Positions 1,276 through 27,784 of a DNA stretch of 64,000 nucleotides are shown in pieces (the first letter of the stretch is position 1; each line of letters begins with the position of its first letter). The position numbers were made by a program, and so were the translations under genes. Below the pieces are notes generated by a model. It saw nothing but the letters and a program-made list of their open reading frames with translations. It made no database searches and was not told the DNA's origin. Source of the DNA: Myxococcota bacterium (lineage in GTDB: Bacteria; Myxococcota_A; UBA796; CAJQPC01); NCBI GenBank assembly GCA_036012755.1, contig DASCPX010000047.1, positions 70,560 to 134,559 on the forward strand. The letters run 5' to 3'.

Positions 1276-1316
1276 GGTGGGGGTTTTGGTCAAGGCCACA
1301 CGTCCTGAACCGATTC

Positions 1317-4300
1317 GTGGGCATGATCTGGATCTCTCTGTCCTTGGCGCGCGCCGGAACCATCGAGGTCCCAGGGGACTACGGAACGCTGTCGGCGGCC
1401 ATCGCCGCGGCCAGCGACGGGGACACCATCGAGGTCGACACCGACCTCACCGAGACAGTCGATCTGCAAGGAAAGAGCTTGACGATCGTCGGCAACGGCC
1501 ATGAGATTGCGCCGAGTAGCGGCTCCTATGTCGTGCGCTGGGACGACGGCGAAGAGGGGAGCCTCGAGGACTTCGAGATCACGCCGCCCAGCGGCGCGCG
1601 CGCCTTCGTCCTCGAGAACGCCAGCGTCTCCATCTCTGAAGTCACGATCAACGCCAGCGGCAAGGACACCCTCGACGGCGGCGCCATCAACATCGACGGC
1701 GGGAGCCCGAGCTTCGAGGACCTCACCATCACAGACGCTGTCGGTCGCAAGGGCGGCGCGATCTACATCGACGGCAGCGCCACCGTGACGCTCACCGATG
1801 TCGACATCGAGGACGCAGAGGCCACCTGGGGTGCCGGTCTGGCGATCACCGACAGCGCGGCCGTCACCGCCACGAGGGTCACGATCTCCGACCCCGAAGC
1901 CAGCCGGCAGGGGGTCGGCGTCTTCCTCGACGGCGCCACGCTGACGGGAACCACCCTGAAGATCACGGATCCCTCCGGCGAAGACACCTTCGGCGCCGGG
2001 CTCTACCTGCAGGACCACGCGGTCCTCGACCTCACCGGTGGCAGCATCACCGGCTGCTCGGTCAGCACGACTGGCTACTCCGGCGGCGGTGTCTACGCCG
2101 AGAACGGCTCGGCGATGACGCTCACGAGCCTGAGTATCGACAGCTGCGAGGCCAGCTACGGCGGCGCCATCGCGCTCGATGCATCAAGCGCCGAGCTGTC
2201 CAACGTCAGCTTCACGGGCAACCTCGCCGAAGAGCGCGGCGGGGCCATCTACCTCGAGTCTGCGGCAGAGCTCTCCTGCGACGGCTGCAGCTTCGACGCC
2301 AACGAAGCGGACCTCGGCGGCGCGGTCGCCGTCGACGAGTCCTCCACCTTCGTCGATGACGAGGGCAGCTACGAGAACAACGTCGCCGCCAACGAGGGAG
2401 GCGCCGTCTGGCTGCGCTCGGCTGCGACCTTCGAGCTCTCCGAGTTCAGCAGCAACAGCGCCAGCGATGGCGGGGCCATCTACGCCTACGACATCGGCGA
2501 CGTGCTCGAGATCATCGACGGGACCTTCACGACCAACGACGCCACCGGTGAAGGGGGAGCGATCTTCGTCGAGGACGACGGGGAGCTCGACGTCGACGGC
2601 AGCACCTTCGACGAGAACATCGCCGACAGCGGCGGCGCCATCGCCTTCTCACCTGGCGACAACAGCTGGGATCTCACGGTCACCGACAGCACCTTCGAGT
2701 CCAACGAGGCCACGGACGACGGCGGGGCCATCCACGTCTCCAAGGGCGAGCTCATCGCGCTCCGCGGGGTCGACTTCCTCCGCGGCAGCGCGGGCGAGGA
2801 CGGCGGCGCTCTCTACGTCTACGCCTCGGACGAACTCACCGTCACGCGCTGCCTCTTCTTCGACAACGAAGCCACCGAGTATGGCGGCGCGGCGGTCGAG
2901 AGCGCGACGGTGGAAGCCAGCACCTGGACGAACAACCTCGTCGTCGAGAACGACGCGGACAACGCGGCGGGCATCCTCTTCGACGACTGCGAGGACACCT
3001 CCTACGTCGCCAACAACGACTTCCTGGCCAACGACATCGGCTCCGCAGGCGCCGGGGTGATCTGGATCGAGGACGGCGGCGTCGAGTTCCTCAACAACAT
3101 CGTCGCCGACAACAACGGCGGCTACGCGATCTACTGCGCGGACACCGACGTCGACGGGCTCTCCGACTTCTTCCACAACGACTTCTCGGACAACGACGGC
3201 GGCGGCAGCGACTTCGACGGCTGCACCGACCCGGGGACCGACGACGGCAACCTCGAGGACGACCCGGACTGGCGCTCGGCGCCGAGCTGGGATGGGGACG
3301 AGTCCGACGACGACTACCACCTCGATCCCGGCAGCACACTGGTCGACGCGGGCCAGACGGACATCTACGACCCGGACGGCTCGGTCAGCGACATCGGCGC
3401 CTTCGGCGGTCCTGACGCAGAGGTCAACGACGCCGACGGCGACGGCTACTACGACACGACCGACTGCGACGACGGCGACGCCACCATCCACCCCGACGCC
3501 ACCGAGACCCCCTACGACGGCATCGACCAGGACTGCGACGGCGGCGATCTCGTCGACGTGGACGGCGACGGCTACGACGGCGACGTGGACGACTGCGACG
3601 ACGACAACGCCGTGATCAACCCCGGCGCCGAGGAGACCTGGTACGACGGCATCGACGCCGACTGCGACGGGCTCTCCGACTACGACGCCGACCTCGATCT
3701 CTACGACGACCAGCGCTACGGCGGCCTCGACTGCGACGACGAGGACGCGGCCGTGAACCCCTCTGGGACAGAGGTCTGGTACGACGGCGTCGACCAGGAC
3801 TGCGACGGGTGGTCCGACTACGACGCCGACATGGACGGCTTCGACTCCGCCAGCTACGGCGGCGACGACTGCGACGACACCCGCCCCTTCGTCAACCCTG
3901 GCGCCCGCGAGATCCCCTACGACGGCGTGGACGAGGACTGCGACGGCGAGGAGATCTGGGACGTGGACGGCGACGGCTGGGAGGGCACCCCCGGTGCCGG
4001 CGCGGACTGCAACGACAACGACCCCGCCATCCACCCGGGCGCCGAGGAGATCCCCTACAACAGCTTCGACGAGAACTGCGACGGCCACGTCTCCTACGAC
4101 AACGACGACGACGGCTTCGACCGCGATCCTCCCGGCAGCGACTGCGACGACGACGACGCGAGCGTCTTCCCGGGGGCTGTCGAGGCCTGGTACGACGGCA
4201 TCGACCAGGACTGCCTCGGCGACGACGACTACGACGCCGACGGCGACGGTCAGCAGCCAGAGGCCTACGGAGGCTTGGACTGCGACGACCTCGACTCCCT

Positions 4301-6401
4301 CGTCTATGTCGGCGCCTCGGAGAACTACTACGACGGCATCGATCAGAACTGCGACGGCGCCGATGACTACGACCGGGATCGAGACGGCCACCGGGCCGAG
4401 GACTGGGGCGAAGACTGCGACGACCGCCGTGACGACGCCTACCCCGGAGCAGAGGAGCTCTTCAACGGCCTCGACGACGACTGCGACGGCTACCCAGAGG
4501 ACGCCGACCGCGACGGTGACGGCGCCATCGACTGGGTCGAGTGGGCCATCGGCAGCGATCCGGAGGACCCGGACACGGACGATGACGGCGACGAGGACGG
4601 CAAGGAGCTCTACGAGGCCACAGAGGGCGTCGACAGCGATCTGGACGGCGTGCTCGACGTCTTCGACGACGACGACGACGGCGACGGCATCCCCTCGCTC
4701 ACGGAGAACACCGCCGATCCGGATCGGGACGGCGTGGTGGACGCGGACGTCGACGGTGACGGGATCCGCAACTCCCGCGACAGGGACAGCGACGGCGACG
4801 GCTACCTCGACGAGGACGAGGGCGCAGAGGACAAGGACTTCGACGGCGTGCCCGAGTACATCGACTACAACGGCGACTACGCTGGCGGCGGCTGCGCGGG
4901 CTTCGGGATCACCTGGCTCTCCGTCCTGGCCTTCCCGGTCTTGCTGTCGCGGCGTCGGCGGCACTTCGCGACGCTGCTGGGGCTCATCGGAATCAGCGGC
5001 CTGTTCGCGATGACCAGCACCGCCGAGGCGGCCGATTCCCACGGCTACCAGCTCCTCGGCACCACCGGCGATGTCTACGGCTACGCGCGCATCGCCTATC
5101 CAGACGGCGGGCAGCGCGGCGACTGGGACGTCTCCGTCGTCGGCGACCACGCCTGGCGGCCCCTGGTCGAGGTCCTCCCAGAGGGCAGGACTCCGTTGAT
5201 CTCGAACCTCTCGACCGCCAACATCGCCATGTCCGGCTCCCTCGGTGCTCGCACCCGCCTCGAGGCGGTCGTGCCAGTCCACGCCTACGGCGTCGGTCCC
5301 ACGGGCAGCTTCGCCGCGATGGGTGATGCGCGGCTCGGCGCGGTCGTGCCCGCCTGGTCCCCCGCCGGCATCCGCCCGGGGCTCGCCATCGCTCCCAGCG
5401 TGTGGATCCCCACAGGCAGCGAGGACCGCATGGTCGGAAACCCGGGCATCTCCGCTGGTGGTGTCGTGACCGTCGCCCAGGAGCTCGGCCGCCTCGGCTG
5501 GGTCGCCAACGTCGGCGCGCGCGCTGGCCGCTTCGAGCCCGAGCGCAACCTGCGGGCCGGCGCTGGACCGCTGGTCGGAGTCGGGGCCCACTACGCGGTC
5601 ACGGACGCGCTCACGGTCGCAACAGAGGCCACCGTGCAGGGGTCGACGGGGTTCTCGAGCTGGCCGGTCGAGCTGATGGCCTCTGGTCGCATCCGCCTCA
5701 GAGGAGGGAGCTGGGCGACCGTCGGTGTCGGCGCCGGCCTGAACGATGCGGTGGGCGCCAGCACCGCCCGCGTCGTCATCGGCGGAGGCTTCAACAAGCG
5801 CAACGAGCCGCCGCCAGAGGTGATGCTGCAGTACGTCGAGACCATCGTGGAGATCGAGGTCGAGCCAGAGTTCGACCCTCTCGGCGACGACGACGGCGAC
5901 GGCGTGCTCAACGGCGACGACCGCTGCCCGGACGTGCCGATCTACGAGGCCCAGGACCCCCGCTTCAGCGACGGCTGCCCGAAGCTGGCCGAGCTCTCCG
6001 GGGACCGCATCATCATCACCCAGAGCATCTTCTTCCGAGAGGCCAGCGCCACGATCCAGCGCAAGTCCTTCGACGTGCTGGACGAGGTCGCCCGCATCCT
6101 GATCGAGCACCCCGAGATCGACGCCCTGCTCATCGAGGGCCACACCAACGACAACGGCGGCCCCGAGTACAACTACCGGCTCTCAGAGGACCGCGCGGTC
6201 AGCGTCATGCGCCACCTCATCGACGAGGGTGTCGATCGCAACCGCCTGGTCGCCCAGGGCTACGGCTATGACGTCCCCCTTGTCGAGCACGATCACGCCG
6301 ACGCGAAGCAGGTCAACCGCCGGGTCGAGTTCACGGTCGTGAAGCGCAGCGAGGAGCCCGGCGACGCCCGGATCCCGGACGAGGGCGAGCTGGCGGACTA
6401 G
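1317..6401 (+). CDS. Large surface protein: beta-helix (GGAI repeats), 8 MopE-related Cys/Asp repeats, TSP3-like repeats, internal MYXO-CTERM-like segment, second signal peptide, beta-barrel and OmpA C-terminal domain
   Basis: GGAI/FxxNxA repeats; DCDDxxxxxxPGAxExxxDGxDxDCDG repeats; DxDGDG repeats; GGGC-hydrophobic-RRRR; OmpA motifs IEGHT, LSEDRA, GYG, NRRVEF. Confidence 0.85.
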   Translation: MGMIWISLSLARAGTIEVPGDYGTLSAAIAAASDGDTIEVDTDLTETVDLQGKSLTIVGNGHEIAPSSGSYVVRWDDGEEGSLEDFEITPPSGARAFVLENASVSISEVTINASGKDTLDGGAINIDGGSPSFEDLTITDAVGRKGGAIYIDGSATVTLTDVDIEDAEATWGAGLAITDSAAVTATRVTISDPEASRQGVGVFLDGATLTGTTLKITDPSGEDTFGAGLYLQDHAVLDLTGGSITGCSVSTTGYSGGGVYAENGSAMTLTSLSIDSCEASYGGAIALDASSAELSNVSFTGNLAEERGGAIYLESAAELSCDGCSFDANEADLGGAVAVDESSTFVDDEGSYENNVAANEGGAVWLRSAATFELSEFSSNSASDGGAIYAYDIGDVLEIIDGTFTTNDATGEGGAIFVEDDGELDVDGSTFDENIADSGGAIAFSPGDNSWDLTVTDSTFESNEATDDGGAIHVSKGELIALRGVDFLRGSAGEDGGALYVYASDELTVTRCLFFDNEATEYGGAAVESATVEASTWTNNLVVENDADNAAGILFDDCEDTSYVANNDFLANDIGSAGAGVIWIEDGGVEFLNNIVADNNGGYAIYCADTDVDGLSDFFHNDFSDNDGGGSDFDGCTDPGTDDGNLEDDPDWRSAPSWDGDESDDDYHLDPGSTLVDAGQTDIYDPDGSVSDIGAFGGPDAEVNDADGDGYYDTTDCDDGDATIHPDATETPYDGIDQDCDGGDLVDVDGDGYDGDVDDCDDDNAVINPGAEETWYDGIDADCDGLSDYDADLDLYDDQRYGGLDCDDEDAAVNPSGTEVWYDGVDQDCDGWSDYDADMDGFDSASYGGDDCDDTRPFVNPGAREIPYDGVDEDCDGEEIWDVDGDGWEGTPGAGADCNDNDPAIHPGAEEIPYNSFDENCDGHVSYDNDDDGFDRDPPGSDCDDDDASVFPGAVEAWYDGIDQDCLGDDDYDADGDGQQPEAYGGLDCDDLDSLVYVGASENYYDGIDQNCDGADDYDRDRDGHRAEDWGEDCDDRRDDAYPGAEELFNGLDDDCDGYPEDADRDGDGAIDWVEWAIGSDPEDPDTDDDGDEDGKELYEATEGVDSDLDGVLDVFDDDDDGDGIPSLTENTADPDRDGVVDADVDGDGIRNSRDRDSDGDGYLDEDEGAEDKDFDGVPEYIDYNGDYAGGGCAGFGITWLSVLAFPVLLSRRRRHFATLLGLIGISGLFAMTSTAEAADSHGYQLLGTTGDVYGYARIAYPDGGQRGDWDVSVVGDHAWRPLVEVLPEGRTPLISNLSTANIAMSGSLGARTRLEAVVPVHAYGVGPTGSFAAMGDARLGAVVPAWSPAGIRPGLAIAPSVWIPTGSEDRMVGNPGISAGGVVTVAQELGRLGWVANVGARAGRFEPERNLRAGAGPLVGVGAHYAVTDALTVATEATVQGSTGFSSWPVELMASGRIRLRGGSWATVGVGAGLNDAVGASTARVVIGGGFNKRNEPPPEVMLQYVETIVEIEVEPEFDPLGDDDGDGVLNGDDRCPDVPIYEAQDPRFSDGCPKLAELSGDRIIITQSIFFREASATIQRKSFDVLDEVARILIEHPEIDALLIEGHTNDNGGPEYNYRLSEDRAVSVMRHLIDEGVDRNRLVAQGYGYDVPLVEHDHADAKQVNRRVEFTVVKRSEEPGDARIPDEGELAD
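3460..4492 (+). repeat. Eight tandem putative metal-binding (MopE-related) repeats inside the CDS
   Basis: Counted 8 copies of DC(D/N)D-x6-(P/V)-x3-E-x2,3-(D/N)-x2-D-x-(D/N)-C in the translation. Confidence 0.8.
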
Positions 6402-6413
6402 CCGAGACGCTTC

Positions 6414-7916
<1,503 letters not shown>

Positions 7917-7930
7917 GCCCTGGTCTTATC

Positions 7931-9388
7931 TCAAGCTGCCCACGACGCCCGGTTGCAGCCCCTGTTGCGCTCCAGGTGCGCCTCGATGCGCGCGTGGAAC
8001 TGCTCGGCGTCGATGTGGTGGTCCGGATCGAGGGTGAGCCCGATGACCGTGCTCGAGAGCAGGATGCGCTGGCCTCCGAGGTCCAGCTTCATCATCTCGA
8101 TCGCCGCCCGGATGCGCTCGGCAAGGACTCGCCCGCCGGCAGTGTCGGTGCGGGGCAGGATGATGCCGAAGCAGTCCCCCGCAGTGCGCGCGACGAAGTC
8201 CGTCTCCCGGACCATGCGCTGCAGCGTCGCCGCGACGCGACGGAGGATCTCGTCTCCAGCGGCCTGCCCGTAGCGCTGGTTGTGCTCGTCCTGGCGGTCG
8301 ATGTCCACCAGCACGCAGGACAGCGCGTCGTGGGTCGAGTGGGCCGTCTCGATCTCGTTCCGCAGCGTCATGAAGTAGCGCTGGCGGGTCGGGAGCCCCG
8401 TCAGCATGTCCTGCTGCGTCAGCGCCTGGATCCTGAGCTTCAGCTCCTCGATGTGGCGGGTCAGGGTGCGCTTCTCTGCGCGCATCTCTTCGATCTTGTG
8501 GACGAGGTCGTCCCGATCGAGGCCGTCGAGGCCGTCGTCCGAGTGCTTCAGCATCTGCGTGAGATCCGGCTGACGGCGGAGAGACACGCCGAAGATGTCC
8601 GCGATCTCGTCGACTGTGACGCCGACCGAGGAGACCATCGTCTCGGCCTCCTTCGGGGACACTCCCAGGGACTCCGCGAGGATCGTCGAGGCATCCAGCA
8701 TCGCCTGCTGCGGGTCCGCCGCGGTCCAGACCTCGGCGATGACGTCGGACAGGGCCGCGAGCTGTCGGAGTCGGTCGGAGCGCTCGTCGGGCTCTCCGGG
8801 CTCGTGGTGGAGCATGACCGGCCGCGTGATGTCCCGGGGCAGGTGCCAGGCTGCGGAGATGGCGGCGAAGTCCTCGACGTGGGTGTACTTGAGGAACTCC
8901 CGCTCCTTGGCCACCCGCGCTTTTCCGTGGAGGCCGCGCACCGTGTCGAACCAGATCGACAGCGAGGGGTCCCTGAGGATCGTCGCGAGCTTGCCGAGCT
9001 CGACGCAGAAGCCGATCGCCACGGCGATGTCAGGTGTCACCTGTGGGAACTTCGTGGCGATCGCGACGGCTGCGCAGGCCCGCCTCAGGCAGTCTTCGTT
9101 CAGCTTGTGCTTGAGATCCTGGTCGATGTCCGCCCGCTCGACCGCCTCGGCCGCGGCGTAGCAGACAGCGAGGCTGCCGAGGGCCTTGGCCCCCAACAGC
9201 AGCGCCGCGCGCTGGGCGTTGTCGACCCGCGACTGGATGCCGAAGGTGCTGGAGTTGACGTAGCGCAGCACGCACTTGGAGAAGACCGGATCCTGGGCGG
9301 CGAGGGCGCCGAGCCGCTGCACGCTCGCGTCAGGGCTCCACGCGAGGCGGATGATGTCGAGGAGCTGCGAGGTGGGCGCGGGAACCAT
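7931..9388 (-). CDS. HDOD domain, coiled coil and degenerate GGDEF domain
   Basis: HDOD: QDPVFSKCVLRYVNS, WHLP..I..HHEP; GGDEF fold: DMLTGL, DID, YGQAAGD, RETD, but signature reads AGDCF; start 9388 (ATG) or 9400 (TTG). Confidence 0.85.
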   Translation of the reverse strand: MVPAPTSQLLDIIRLAWSPDASVQRLGALAAQDPVFSKCVLRYVNSSTFGIQSRVDNAQRAALLLGAKALGSLAVCYAAAEAVERADIDQDLKHKLNEDCLRRACAAVAIATKFPQVTPDIAVAIGFCVELGKLATILRDPSLSIWFDTVRGLHGKARVAKEREFLKYTHVEDFAAISAAWHLPRDITRPVMLHHEPGEPDERSDRLRQLAALSDVIAEVWTAADPQQAMLDASTILAESLGVSPKEAETMVSSVGVTVDEIADIFGVSLRRQPDLTQMLKHSDDGLDGLDRDDLVHKIEEMRAEKRTLTRHIEELKLRIQALTQQDMLTGLPTRQRYFMTLRNEIETAHSTHDALSCVLVDIDRQDEHNQRYGQAAGDEILRRVAATLQRMVRETDFVARTAGDCFGIILPRTDTAGGRVLAERIRAAIEMMKLDLGGQRILLSSTVIGLTLDPDHHIDAEQFHARIEAHLERNRGCNRASWAA

Positions 9389-9422
9389 TCCGGTCTCCAA
9401 GGTCTCTCGACTCTTCGGATCC

Positions 9423-9449
9423 TGATCGGAGGGTATTGAGCAAACCTCA
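9423..9449 (-). promoter_or_regulatory. sigma28-like promoter for the HDOD-GGDEF gene
   Basis: Minus strand TGAG-N15-TCCGATCA. Confidence 0.5.
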
Positions 9450-9473
9450 AGAGCTTGTTGCGCCGACCGATGT
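9447..9473 (+). promoter_or_regulatory. sigma28-like promoter upstream of flhA
   Basis: TCAA-N15-ACCGATGT versus consensus TAAA-N15-GCCGATAA. Confidence 0.55.
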
Positions 9474-9481
9474 GGGCTTCG

Positions 9482-11557
9482 ATGGACCTCTTCGATCGCA
9501 TACGCAAGGACAGTGACGTCCTGCTCGCCGTCGGCGGCTTCTGCCTGCTCGCGATCATGGTGGTCCCCATCCCGCCGTTCGCGCTCGATCTGCTCATCGC
9601 CGTGAGCTTCAGCATCGCGATGCTGGTGCTGTTGACCGTGCTCTACGTGAAGCGTCCGCTGGACTTCTCGGTCTTCCCGACGCTGCTGTTGATCACGACG
9701 GTCTTCCGGCTCTCCCTGAACGTCGCCTCTACCCGCTTGATCCTCCTGGGTGGATCCGACGGAGGTGCTGGCGCGGCCGGACGCATCATCGAGGCCATGG
9801 GCCAGTTCGTCGTCGGCGGCAACTACGCCGTGGGGCTGGTCGTGTTCGTGATCCTGGTGGTCATCAACTTCGTCGTGGTGACCAAGGGCGCCGGTCGCGT
9901 CGCCGAGGTCAGCGCGCGCTTCACCCTGGACGCCATGCCCGGCAAGCAGATGGCGATCGACGCCGAGCTCAACGCCGGCATGATCGACGAGAAGGAGGCG
10001 CGGACCCGCCGGGACGACATCTCGCGCGAGGCCGACTTCTACGGCTCGATGGACGGCGCGAGCAAGTTCATCAAGGGTGACGCCATCGCCGGCATCGTCA
10101 TCACGATCGTCAACGTCGTCGGGGGGATCTTCATCGGCGTCATCCAGGGGGGCATGCCCCTGACCGAGGCGCTCGAGACCTACACGATCCTCACCATCGG
10201 CGACGGCCTGGTGGGCCAGATGCCGGCGCTCGTGATCTCCGCTGCGGCCGGAATGCTCGTGACGCGGGTCCCGGACGACAAGGACGAGAGCCTCGATGAG
10301 CAACTCGGTGGGCAGCTCCTCGGGTCGCCTCGCGTGCTCGCTGTCCTCGCCGTCTCCCTGGGTGGCTTCGCCCTGGTGCCGGGGCTGCGCATCCCCTTCG
10401 CGCTGGTCGCCCTGGCCGTCGGCGCGATGGCCTGGCAGCTCCGCAAGCGCTCCGGGGACAAGGGTGATGCCGACGCCGAAGCCGCTGCCGTCGAGCGCAG
10501 GCCGCTTGGGCCAGAGGACCTCCTCCCCATCGAGCCCCTCGCCATCGAGGTCGGGGTCGACCTGCTGTACCTGGTCGACGACACCCGAGGAGGGGACCTG
10601 GTCGAGCGCATCCAGCGCATCCGGAACCAGTTCGCCCAGGACCTCGGCGTCGTGCTGCCCCCGGTGAACCTGCGCGACGACATGCGGCTCGGCGGCACCG
10701 AGTACGTGATCCTCATCCGCGGCGAGGAGATCGGGCGAGGTGTGGTCCAGCCCCGCCAGCACCTCGCGATCGATCCTGGCGATGCCCAGCCCGGCATCCG
10801 CGGGGTCGAGGCCCAGGACCCGGTCTTCGGCTTGCCCGCCCTCTGGATTCCAGACAGCCAGGTCCTCAAGGCCCAGGCCCGCGGCTACACCGTCGTGGAC
10901 GTGCCGACGGTGCTCACGACGCATCTCACCGAGCTCATGCACCTCCACGCCCACGAGCTCTACGACATGCCCCAGCTGTGCAAGACCCTGGACCGGATCG
11001 CGGAGAAGTCTCCACAGCTGGTCGAGGACCTGGTCCCCGACCCCCTGGGGCGGCAGGCTGTCCTGCGTGTCTTCCGCAATCTCCTGCGCGAGGGCATCAG
11101 CGTGCGCGACGTCCACACGGTGCTCGAGGCGCTCGGCGACTACGCGCTGAAGACCAAGGCGCCGGACGTGCTCACCGAGTTCGTCCGCCAGCGCATGGCC
11201 CGACACATCACCAGGCGCTTCGCCGACGAGGATGGCGTCGTCCACTACCTCGCGCTGGCCTCTGACGCCGAGGACGCCATCTCCCGCGGCTTGCAGGGAG
11301 CAGACGGCGGCGCGATGAGCCTGGTCCTCGACCCCGCCCACGTCCGTCTGCTCCTCGGGGCGATCCGTGAGCACACAGAGGGCTGGTCCGGAGCCGGTCA
11401 CGTCGTGGTGCTCTGCCCGCCGCTGGCGCGTGGACCCTTCCGCCGGCTCGTGGAGAAGGTCGTCCCGCGGGTGGTCGTGCTGAGCCCAGCCGAGCTCGCC
11501 CCCGGCGTGAAGCTCGAGCGCGTCGCCGTCCTGTCGCTCGGGCGCGCAGCGAGCTGA
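9482..11557 (+). CDS. flhA: Flagellar export gate protein FlhA
   Basis: FSVFPTLLL, RLSLNVASTRLIL, RVAEVSARFTLDAMPGKQMAIDAELNAG, EADFYGSMDGASKFIKGDAIAG; flagellar context. Confidence 0.97.
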   Translation: MDLFDRIRKDSDVLLAVGGFCLLAIMVVPIPPFALDLLIAVSFSIAMLVLLTVLYVKRPLDFSVFPTLLLITTVFRLSLNVASTRLILLGGSDGGAGAAGRIIEAMGQFVVGGNYAVGLVVFVILVVINFVVVTKGAGRVAEVSARFTLDAMPGKQMAIDAELNAGMIDEKEARTRRDDISREADFYGSMDGASKFIKGDAIAGIVITIVNVVGGIFIGVIQGGMPLTEALETYTILTIGDGLVGQMPALVISAAAGMLVTRVPDDKDESLDEQLGGQLLGSPRVLAVLAVSLGGFALVPGLRIPFALVALAVGAMAWQLRKRSGDKGDADAEAAAVERRPLGPEDLLPIEPLAIEVGVDLLYLVDDTRGGDLVERIQRIRNQFAQDLGVVLPPVNLRDDMRLGGTEYVILIRGEEIGRGVVQPRQHLAIDPGDAQPGIRGVEAQDPVFGLPALWIPDSQVLKAQARGYTVVDVPTVLTTHLTELMHLHAHELYDMPQLCKTLDRIAEKSPQLVEDLVPDPLGRQAVLRVFRNLLREGISVRDVHTVLEALGDYALKTKAPDVLTEFVRQRMARHITRRFADEDGVVHYLALASDAEDAISRGLQGADGGAMSLVLDPAHVRLLLGAIREHTEGWSGAGHVVVLCPPLARGPFRRLVEKVVPRVVVLSPAELAPGVKLERVAVLSLGRAAS

Positions 11558-25586: not shown

Positions 25587-27784
25587 TGTTCCTCGCGCTG
25601 CTCGCGACGGTCACGGCTGAGCCTCGCCACGTCGAGCTCGACGGGGGCGCCGAGTGCCGCGTGCGGCAGCTGCCGAGGACCGACGCGGGCCGCGTCCAGT
25701 GGACCTTCAGGAACGTGGACACACCGCTGCTGGCCCAGCTCGAGGGGATCTACACGGATGGAGTCAAGAACTGGGACGCCGTCGGGATCGGCGGGGGGAC
25801 ATGGATCGTCACCGCCTACCTCGATCCCGAGCGGGAGCTGACCGCGACCTGGCGCTGGACGCCCGAGGGGCCCGCGCTCCTGATCATCGATGATGGCGCT
25901 CCGGAGCTGGTCCTGGTGCAGGAGGCCCCGACGCTGGAGGCGCTGGTCGCCGGCGAGGTCCCCCGCCAGGCGGATCCGGTCGCCTCGACTCCGCTGTCCC
26001 CCCTCCGCGGAGATGCGCTCAGCCTCCGCCTGGATGTCGCCACCTTCCCGGCGGCCTTCCCGAGCTGGGAGCCGAACGTCGCGGCGGGACAGCGGGCCAT
26101 GCTCCAGCCGGGCGACGATCTGCTCGCCGTCGATCGCTACCGCCACGTCCTCACGGAGAGCGAGGACGACTACGTGCGCGCCGCCGCGAACTTCCGGCTG
26201 GCAGAGGCCCACCGGGACCTCGGAATGGCCAGGGAGGCCGCCCACTACTTCGAGCGGGTCAGCGAGCTCGACGCGGCCTGGCCGGAGGCCTCGGTGCACC
26301 TCCACCGCGCCCAGGCGGCGCTCGCGGTCGGCCGGGCGGACCAAGCCCGTGCCCTGTGCTCGGAGGTGGCGACCGTCCGGTACAGGGAGGCGCAGGTGCT
26401 CGAGTGCCTGGGCCTGGTCGCCTTGGAGACCGGCGACCCTGCCCCGGCGCCGACGGGCCGAGCGCTGGCTAGGGCGTCAGCGAGGCCGGAGAGCCTCGTG
26501 CTGGCAGCCCAGCTCCTCCAGCTCGACGGGCGGCACCTCGAAGCGGAGCCTCTGCTCGTGGAGGCGCTCTCGGATCTCGATGACCCGCGGCTCGCCGCCG
26601 TCGCCTGGGCCTCGCTCGGGGACGCCCGCTTCCACATCGGGGACAATGAGGGCGCCAGGCGGGCCTGGGCAGAGGTGGTCAGTGACCCGCAACTAGGCGA
26701 CATCGTACGAGTCAGGAAGACCATGCTCGTGATGGTGGAGGAGGGTGCCCGCAGCTGGCCGAGCAACATCCCGAACCTCTACACCCTCGCGGAGTTGCCC
26801 GGACTCGCCGGGGCGGAGGCCCAGTGGCTGCTCGCCCAGGTCGCGCTCGAGCTCGGCGACTTCGAGGGAGCCGCAGGCCACCTGGCCGCCATCCTCGATC
26901 GTCCGGACGTCGATCTGTCCGACTCCGACCTCCCAGCGGTCTTGTGGGATGTCATCGAGACCCGCCTCGGTGAGCTGGAGCGCGCTGGCCGCCAGCTCGA
27001 CCAGCTGGCCTTCTTCCGTGACTCGTGGCGCTCCGAGCTGGAGCCCGAAGTGACTGATGTCGCACGACTCCTCTCGGTCGCCTCTGCCTACGAGGACCTC
27101 GAGCTCCACGACGACGCGCTGTCGGTCCATCGAATCGTCTTCAGCATTCGCAGCCGGCTCGGAGAGTCTTCTCCGGATGACCTGTTCACGCTCGCCCGGC
27201 TCTACTTCGAGGTCGGGCGCCCCGACGAGGCCCTGGAGACCCTGGAGTTCCTGCGCCGCGGAGCCGTCCCCGCGGATCTCACAGGCGCCACCTGGCTGCT
27301 CGAGGGTGACGTGCTGTTGTCCCTCGGGGAGGAGGACGAGGCGATGCAGGCATGGCGCAAGGCAGCTCTGCAGCGGGACACCAAGGTCGAGGCCACCACG
27401 CGCATGGCCCTGCTCGACGCCCGAGAGGGCCGCTGTGCTCGGGCCCGTCCGGCTCTAGAGGATCTCGTCCGCCAGAAGGAAGAGAGCCTGGAGGTCCGTG
27501 AAGGTCACGTCCACCTCACGCTCGCCCGGTGCTACCTCGAGGAGGGGCGCAACGAGGAGGCCGCTGCCGCTGCCCGTGAGGCCGCTGGTCGCAGCGAGGA
27601 CGAGCTGACCCGCCGCTATGCGACCTGGCTGGCCTCCGAGGCGGACCGGGGAGACGACGAACTGCTCGCCCGTGCGCTCGCCAGCGATGACGACCTCTGG
27701 GCCGCGCTGGGGCGCGAGAGGAGCGCAGACTCGGCCTTCGACGCTGAGATCCGCTCCGAGCGTGGGAAAGAGACAAATCCCTAA
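25586..27784 (+). CDS. Exported tetratricopeptide-repeat protein
   Basis: Signal-like MFLALLA, beta-rich N-terminal region, many TPR-like units (LGDARFHIGD..A..AW; LARLYFEVGRPDEA); ATG overlaps upstream TGA. Confidence 0.8.
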   Translation: MFLALLATVTAEPRHVELDGGAECRVRQLPRTDAGRVQWTFRNVDTPLLAQLEGIYTDGVKNWDAVGIGGGTWIVTAYLDPERELTATWRWTPEGPALLIIDDGAPELVLVQEAPTLEALVAGEVPRQADPVASTPLSPLRGDALSLRLDVATFPAAFPSWEPNVAAGQRAMLQPGDDLLAVDRYRHVLTESEDDYVRAAANFRLAEAHRDLGMAREAAHYFERVSELDAAWPEASVHLHRAQAALAVGRADQARALCSEVATVRYREAQVLECLGLVALETGDPAPAPTGRALARASARPESLVLAAQLLQLDGRHLEAEPLLVEALSDLDDPRLAAVAWASLGDARFHIGDNEGARRAWAEVVSDPQLGDIVRVRKTMLVMVEEGARSWPSNIPNLYTLAELPGLAGAEAQWLLAQVALELGDFEGAAGHLAAILDRPDVDLSDSDLPAVLWDVIETRLGELERAGRQLDQLAFFRDSWRSELEPEVTDVARLLSVASAYEDLELHDDALSVHRIVFSIRSRLGESSPDDLFTLARLYFEVGRPDEALETLEFLRRGAVPADLTGATWLLEGDVLLSLGEEDEAMQAWRKAALQRDTKVEATTRMALLDAREGRCARARPALEDLVRQKEESLEVREGHVHLTLARCYLEEGRNEEAAAAAREAAGRSEDELTRRYATWLASEADRGDDELLARALASDDDLWAALGRERSADSAFDAEIRSERGKETNP

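Follow-up and report, generated by a model that had tools for sequence, protein, structure and literature searches.

Does one long reading frame near the start of this DNA encode a single envelope protein, or a precursor of two that part company after export? In the window analysed here (the whole stretch of 64,000 nucleotides), positions 1317–6401 of the forward strand form a single open frame, with 1,694 codons counted from GTG 1317 in the list of open reading frames. A sequence-only reading had proposed that it joins a surface adhesin to an outer-membrane barrel through an internal sorting signal and a second signal peptide.

Reading frame and parts of the fused protein

ATG 1323 is a more likely start than GTG 1317, since a motif of promoter type reaches as far as 1314; it gives a fused gene at 1323–6401 with a 1,692-residue product (1,694 residues from the GTG). 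The junction between the two halves was bridged in all four marine DNA runs (two studies), each time by one contig without a gap and with no indel listed, as judged on assembled contigs rather than raw reads. The open fused frame is retained in 42 relatives from five families. Flanking it are an AlkZ-like glycosylase gene (92–1195) and an M20 peptidase gene (6414–7916), both on the reverse strand, which among 64 loci adjoin the fused gene elsewhere only in genome G002. An HDOD-GGDEF gene (7931–9439, reverse strand), present in 8 of 64 loci examined, lies here between the fused gene and flhA. The word GGTCTGACCCC occurs twice upstream of the fused gene, at about 1197–1207 and 1262–1272 of the window, and in 11 copies genome-wide; it was absent from the words common to the homologues.

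The protein runs from a signal peptide through a β-helix, eight MopE repeats, a Cys–helix–RRRR segment and a second signal peptide to a 12-stranded barrel and an OmpA domain, all encoded on the forward strand. The first signal peptide (1323–1355, about 11 residues) was predicted by eye and matches the relatives' leaders, which are likewise short and hydrophobic with Ala at the end. Next comes a right-handed β-helix region with Chlamydia PMP-type repeats (1356–3431; PF13229, 98 bits; PF02415, 53 bits), a fold assigned from Pfam alone, with a mean column identity of 45% across 42 homologues. A profile search of this half against solved structures returned three weak matches (7w5z, and two alginate lyases over short stretches), which neither support nor rule out a possible enzyme role. 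The eight Asp/Cys-rich MopE-type repeats (3432–4502; PF11617 in eight stretches, 211 bits; eight DC[DN]D motifs) likely form a metal-binding stalk. They lead into Asp-rich TSP3-like repeats and a conserved segment ahead of the junction Cys (4503–4883), in whose last 76 residues 17 columns are invariant across 59 fused and split homologues; PF18884 weakly matched this region in two split homologues.

Beyond the junction lies an outer-membrane β-barrel of the FapF/COG4313 type with about 12 strands in the AlphaFold2 model (5031–5825; PF13557, MetA-pathway, a weak 23 bits), followed by an OmpA-type peptidoglycan-binding domain (6030–6320; PF00691, 58 bits). The model of barrel with junction, made from an alignment of 21 rows, had a mean pLDDT of 74.9; its junction residues 45–86 fell below 50 and are uninformative on membrane topology. 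Closest to the modelled barrel were the folds of FapF (5o67) and a COG4313 channel (4rl8), with E values of 3e-08 to 4e-07, and autotransporter barrels appeared at rank 32 or lower among the fold matches.

The junction in fused and split homologues

At the junction the frame reads as the sequence-only reading had described: Gly-Gly-Gly-Cys (4884–4895, Cys codon 4893–4895), a hydrophobic helix (4902–4949), RRRR (4950–4961), a second hydrophobic stretch (4965–5012) and Ala-Glu-Ala (5022–5030). The part up to RRRR (4884–4961) has the tripartite layout of a MYXO-CTERM signal, and the part from RRRR onwards (4950–5030) that of a second signal peptide, with a basic region, a hydrophobic core and a predicted cut after 5030. 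Across the whole protein, the two hydrophobic stretches of the junction are the only places where a 19-residue window exceeds a mean hydropathy of 1.5. Because 479 residues follow the tag, it is not C-terminal in the fused protein; it is terminal in 26 split loci. Annotation pipelines that expect a C-terminal tag will miss such proteins.

The assignment to MYXO-CTERM held for the layout and not for the models. The window junction gave no match at E up to 1 to TIGR03901 (cut-off 20) or TIGR03382 (cut-off 15.85), its best model match was Synerg-CTERM at 17.4 bits, below the cut-off of 22.5, and a profile of the genome's own terminal tags (51 in all) did not list it at 9 bits or above. Of the 21 fused junctions tested, only 4 passed a MYXO-CTERM model, as did 2 of the 4 split ends and 8 of the 9 junctions from a second fused family (C61, below). 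The tag Cys is invariant in the 59 fused and split rows as cut, and the Gly-Gly-Gly-Cys end is conserved among fused and split copies alike.

Every fused locus (43/43) carried Ala at position −1, together with a small residue at −3, no more than 14 residues from the mature start and with a hydrophobic stretch ahead, by a simple rule of our own rather than SignalP that counts the first helix in three single-helix copies. Ala-x-Ala by itself is frequent (41% of control windows), whereas the full rule with its hydrophobic core picked out 5.7% of 6,676 control windows from the same proteins. The site coincides with the N-terminal signal of the second gene in split homologues. Pairwise identity is 66% in the segment before the Cys, 35% in the helix, 24% in the second signal and 50% in the barrel (21 rows). 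Its length differs from copy to copy for the second signal, which, at 24% identity between conserved flanks, shows the pattern of a signal peptide. A separate second hydrophobic core was present in 39 of the 43 fused copies and weak in another; the remaining three, all of one genus (L157 in G050, L163 in G053 and L181 in G051), have a single helix between the Cys and the Ala-x-Ala site, and a consistent internal start codon was not found in them.

A profile of the junction and barrel (E up to 1e-40) detected 73 homologous loci, spread over 68 of the 154 genomes analysed from the order, and in a phylum sample of 251 genomes only five weak matches outside the order. Of these loci, 43 are fused (one, in G086, is truncated where its contig stops and was assigned by eye), 26 are split into two genes at this very junction (24, plus 2 with wider gaps) and 4 are unclassified. 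The check on homologues that the sequence-only reading had asked for found the same fusion, and relatives do not always have two genes. A core clade comprises 43 fused loci, 21 split loci and one cut locus, with 8 loci outside. In split loci, gene 1 ends in Cys, helix, Arg cluster and stop, and gene 2 opens with a short signal of its own followed by the same mature start; the two are coupled by overlapping stop and start codons, and their N-halves have the same MopE-rich make-up as those of fused copies. Two split loci, in G137 and G148, have no clear ATG for gene 2. One family has a run of three genes, in which an extra tagged gene overlaps the beginning of the adhesin gene (15 or 16 of the 41 starts examined; L038, L044, L152, L154, L167 and L170, among others).

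Fused and split copies were interleaved on the barrel tree, and the sister clade is split. Over its 67 rows the fused label needed six changes, five of them being forced by well-supported branches, and a single fused clade was rejected (p-AU 6e-05). Both trees built were quick trees of the barrel alone, and this one left out the outgroups, the second family, five distant, cut or unclassified rows, and G137, which was too short. Such repeated switching fits interchangeable one-gene and two-gene states, and it suggests that one gene or two would give the same products.

Proposed processing of the precursor

The genome encodes a protein with a myxosortase core (NF040914, 115 bits, cut-off 100), which scored below the cut-offs for MrtX, MrtC and MrtP, and the type II secretin GspD (TIGR02517, 518 bits, cut-off 351). 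TIGR03901 gave 33 matches above cut-off when 150 of the genome's 266 candidates were scored. Together with the ends and starts of the split genes, the myxosortase and the secretin support what had been proposed from the letters alone, a precursor of two units in which the Arg cluster serves both signals.

We consider it probable that the precursor forms a hairpin in the inner membrane, from which signal peptidase I would free the barrel–OmpA half and myxosortase with type II secretion would deliver the N-half to the surface. Its two products would match those encoded by separate genes in split relatives; we infer every processing step. The N-half would be exported by Sec through the first signal. 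The helix behind the Cys would then halt transfer with RRRR left on the cytoplasmic side; export would resume at the second hydrophobic stretch, giving the hairpin. Signal peptidase I, cutting after Ala-Glu-Ala, would release the barrel to the outer membrane, where the OmpA domain would grip peptidoglycan. Myxosortase would cut at the Cys, which is likely lipidated, and the type II system would place the N-half on the surface, by extension from work in M. xanthus. The two products would probably pair, as TraA does with TraB.

Several observations count against this model: the three single-helix fused copies, for which a simple hairpin does not account, and a fourth copy with a weak second core; the failure of the window junction against both MYXO-CTERM models; and the presence of ATG, GTG or TTG near the Arg cluster in 33 of 43 fused copies, including a TTG just ahead of RRRR here. 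The last of these suits a different reading, in which the fused frame works as a pair of overlapping genes, with translation of the barrel half beginning at an internal start. In the window this start would be the in-frame TTG at 4941–4943 (forward strand), three codons ahead of RRRR and common to G002, which would yield a good signal peptide, and split homologues already use overlapping stop–start coupling. However, the TTG is absent in G001 of the same genus, 10 of the 43 fused copies lack ATG, GTG and TTG within eight codons either side of the Arg cluster, the positions are not conserved, and the full-length chain would need processing anyway. We regard an internal start as quite unlikely.

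The poor model scores bear instead on how the N-half ends. Were signal peptidase the only enzyme to cut, the N-half would keep its helix and either remain anchored to the inner membrane on the periplasmic side or arrive at the surface uncut. A window tag that is short and below both MYXO-CTERM cut-offs would fit, as would some surface TraA found without myxosortase (Guo et al., PMC11980579, as described there). Yet the Gly-Gly-Gly-Cys end is kept in fused and split copies, some homologues do pass the MYXO-CTERM models and the genome has a myxosortase, so we hold this version to be unlikely. A β-helix with PMP repeats, moreover, suits a role at the surface, which also counts against an N-half held in the inner membrane. 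PMP-type repeats ahead of a 12-stranded C-terminal barrel could also recall an autotransporter, with the β-helix exported through its own barrel as a single uncleaved chain, and single-helix junctions do exist. Against this stand the two hydrophobic segments around RRRR, the 26 split homologues with a signal for each half and a barrel that folds closest to FapF/COG4313; we judge it very improbable. The existence of two-gene homologues might bring to mind stop-codon loss or an assembly artefact, devoid of function; this reading has next to no chance of being right, as it is ruled out by the conserved fusion (42 relatives, five families) and by the contigs that bridge the junction in all four runs.

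Two further families of this order are joined by a tag-plus-signal junction of the same type. Among the genome's 12 barrel matches, 2 sit in one frame with a tag (the gene studied here and the one on contig C61), and 5 more lie behind a gene that ends in a tag. The second fused gene (C61, 18572–21724, reverse strand; L190) encodes 1,050 residues with a tag at the TIGR03901 cut-off, a second signal, a barrel and an OmpA domain; its family was fused in nine further loci examined and forms a separate clade of its own. On contig C23 (11723–14065, reverse strand; L187), an MXAN_2561-like protein is fused to an MXAN_2562-like barrel through a one-helix junction with no Arg cluster. This fusion was matched in 92 of 101 genomes, both halves being under their model cut-offs, and by eye the junction had two helices in 27 of the 30 such loci shown. 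Two genes of the same genome, on C228 (1625–4108, forward strand) and C214 (reverse strand, running off the contig), carry an internal tag followed by a lipoprotein-type signal, with Cys after a hydrophobic stretch. Outside the order, the same junction to a barrel was seen in an MtsC-like protein and an Ig-repeat adhesin (L226 in G228; L225 in G289).

Flagellar linkage and known systems

Eight bases ahead of ATG 1323 lies a putative σ28-type promoter, T[CA]AAR-N15-CCGAT (1290–1314, forward strand). Its spacing equals that of the E. coli σ28 consensus, of the TAAAG-N15-CCGAT type (as given in PMC2859248), with the variant TCAAG ahead of the fused gene. The window holds six matches against 0.06 expected (100 shuffles), and they precede the fused gene, flhA, fliA, flgM, fliF and one unidentified ORF at 27782; a looser form also lies ahead of fliD, and the two flagellin genes in the window have no upstream match, strict or loose. 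Most of these genes belong to a flagellar cluster at 9447–31641 (flhA, fliA, flgM, flgK, flagellins, fliD and fliF) whose first gene is flhA (9455–11557, forward strand; PF00771), and here the motif is carried even by early genes such as flhA and fliF. Among 41 starts examined in homologues, it was found ahead of 17 of 24 without a tagged gene running into the start and 1 of 16 with such a gene, against a background of 1.0% of 12,300 random windows, the pattern having been derived from the same sequences in which it was then counted. The loose form occurs near the start of only 3 of 81 tagged ORFs in this genome.

The linkage extends to relatives. Of the 65 genomes carrying a core locus, 64 have flhA, versus 39 of the 89 others; kin among them are not independent. 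Where both lie on one contig (n = 25), the gene is upstream of flhA and on the same strand in every case, within 10 kb in 19, and the barrel match is within 760 bases in 6. In genomes without a core match, 19 of 20 stretches upstream of flhA lacked such a pair (four were about 5 kb or shorter) and one had a split pair, so flagella do not require it. The fused gene is likely transcribed together with the flagellar regulon, as far as motif and neighbourhood can tell; attachment of the swimming cell to surfaces or particles is our guess at its job, with about an even chance of being right. The putative promoter and the linkage together offer a first functional lead for TraA/TraB-like pairs beyond kin recognition. 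A broader picture combines several ideas, and as a whole we hold it doubtful: tag-plus-signal hairpins may form an order-wide polyprotein grammar, with at least three unrelated conserved families and lipoprotein-signal versions moving between one gene and two; in single-helix copies the myxosortase cut may itself expose the second protein's export signal; and the family here may be a σ28-controlled, wall-anchored adhesin that docks a swimming myxobacterium on surfaces or prey.

Among known proteins, the best structural matches of the barrel, FapF and COG4313 channels (5o67, 4rl8), share only about 14% identity with it and differ in that the barrel here continues into an OmpA domain. As to one chain giving two products, bunyavirus Gn/Gc (a subject of PMC5113920) and Bradyrhizobium FbcH are polyproteins with internal signal peptides, in which an anchor helix and a cytoplasmic loop are followed by a second signal that signal peptidase cuts. 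FbcH and Gn/Gc are unrelated to the proteins here and, unlike them, have neither a Cys sorting tag nor a sortase step.

TraA and TraB, to which the sequence-only reading had likened the two halves, resemble them in layout: a CTERM surface protein, then a signal peptide, barrel, TSP3-type repeats and OmpA domain, with the two proteins reported at 1:1 (as described in PMC3325183 and PMC12045341). They differ in being encoded by two overlapping genes, and TraA, by the same descriptions, combines a PA14 domain with Cys-rich TIGR04201 repeats, neither of which Pfam and NCBIfam searches found in the N-half. The C-half shares the signal peptide, outer-membrane barrel and OmpA domain of TraB and was rejected as TraB itself, scoring 133 bits against a cut-off of 700 (NF033763) over model positions 349–511 of 522 only. 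The N-half matched no TraA model. Neither identity with TraA/TraB nor the suggested role in membrane exchange was supported.

Closer in layout is MXAN_5598 of Myxococcus xanthus, which by its published description has a large adhesin region, an internal MYXO-CTERM, a barrel and OmpA in one open reading frame, and for which the authors propose a gene fusion and processing of the N-half (Guo, Haft and Wall 2025, PMC11980579). The passages of that paper that we drew on mention neither a second signal peptide nor a test for MXAN_5598, although its Table S1 may mark the former, and the text of the Haft preprint that we drew on does not mention an internal tag, fusion or polyprotein. A peptide from the N-half of MXAN_5598 (2,699 residues) is reported from three of three vesicle preparations in a vesicle proteome, a result that assigns the N-half to the outer membrane and is not informative on cleavage. 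MXAN_5598 adjoins ftsA/ftsZ, whereas the family here is about 1,600–1,900 residues long, has an N-half with a β-helix and MopE repeats, and has flhA as its neighbour. Hardly any tests have been made of bacterial envelope polyproteins that two housekeeping proteases cleave, the one printed case being a paragraph of discussion. The natural fused, split and single-helix versions make a ready series for asking if an internal tag is recognised by myxosortase and if the order of cuts matters. This analysis adds comparative evidence for a conserved second signal, a further two fused families in this genome, the series of fused, split and single-helix copies, and the flagellar link. The fused gene is real and conserved, its layout is already in print for MXAN_5598, and it is distinct from TraA/TraB.
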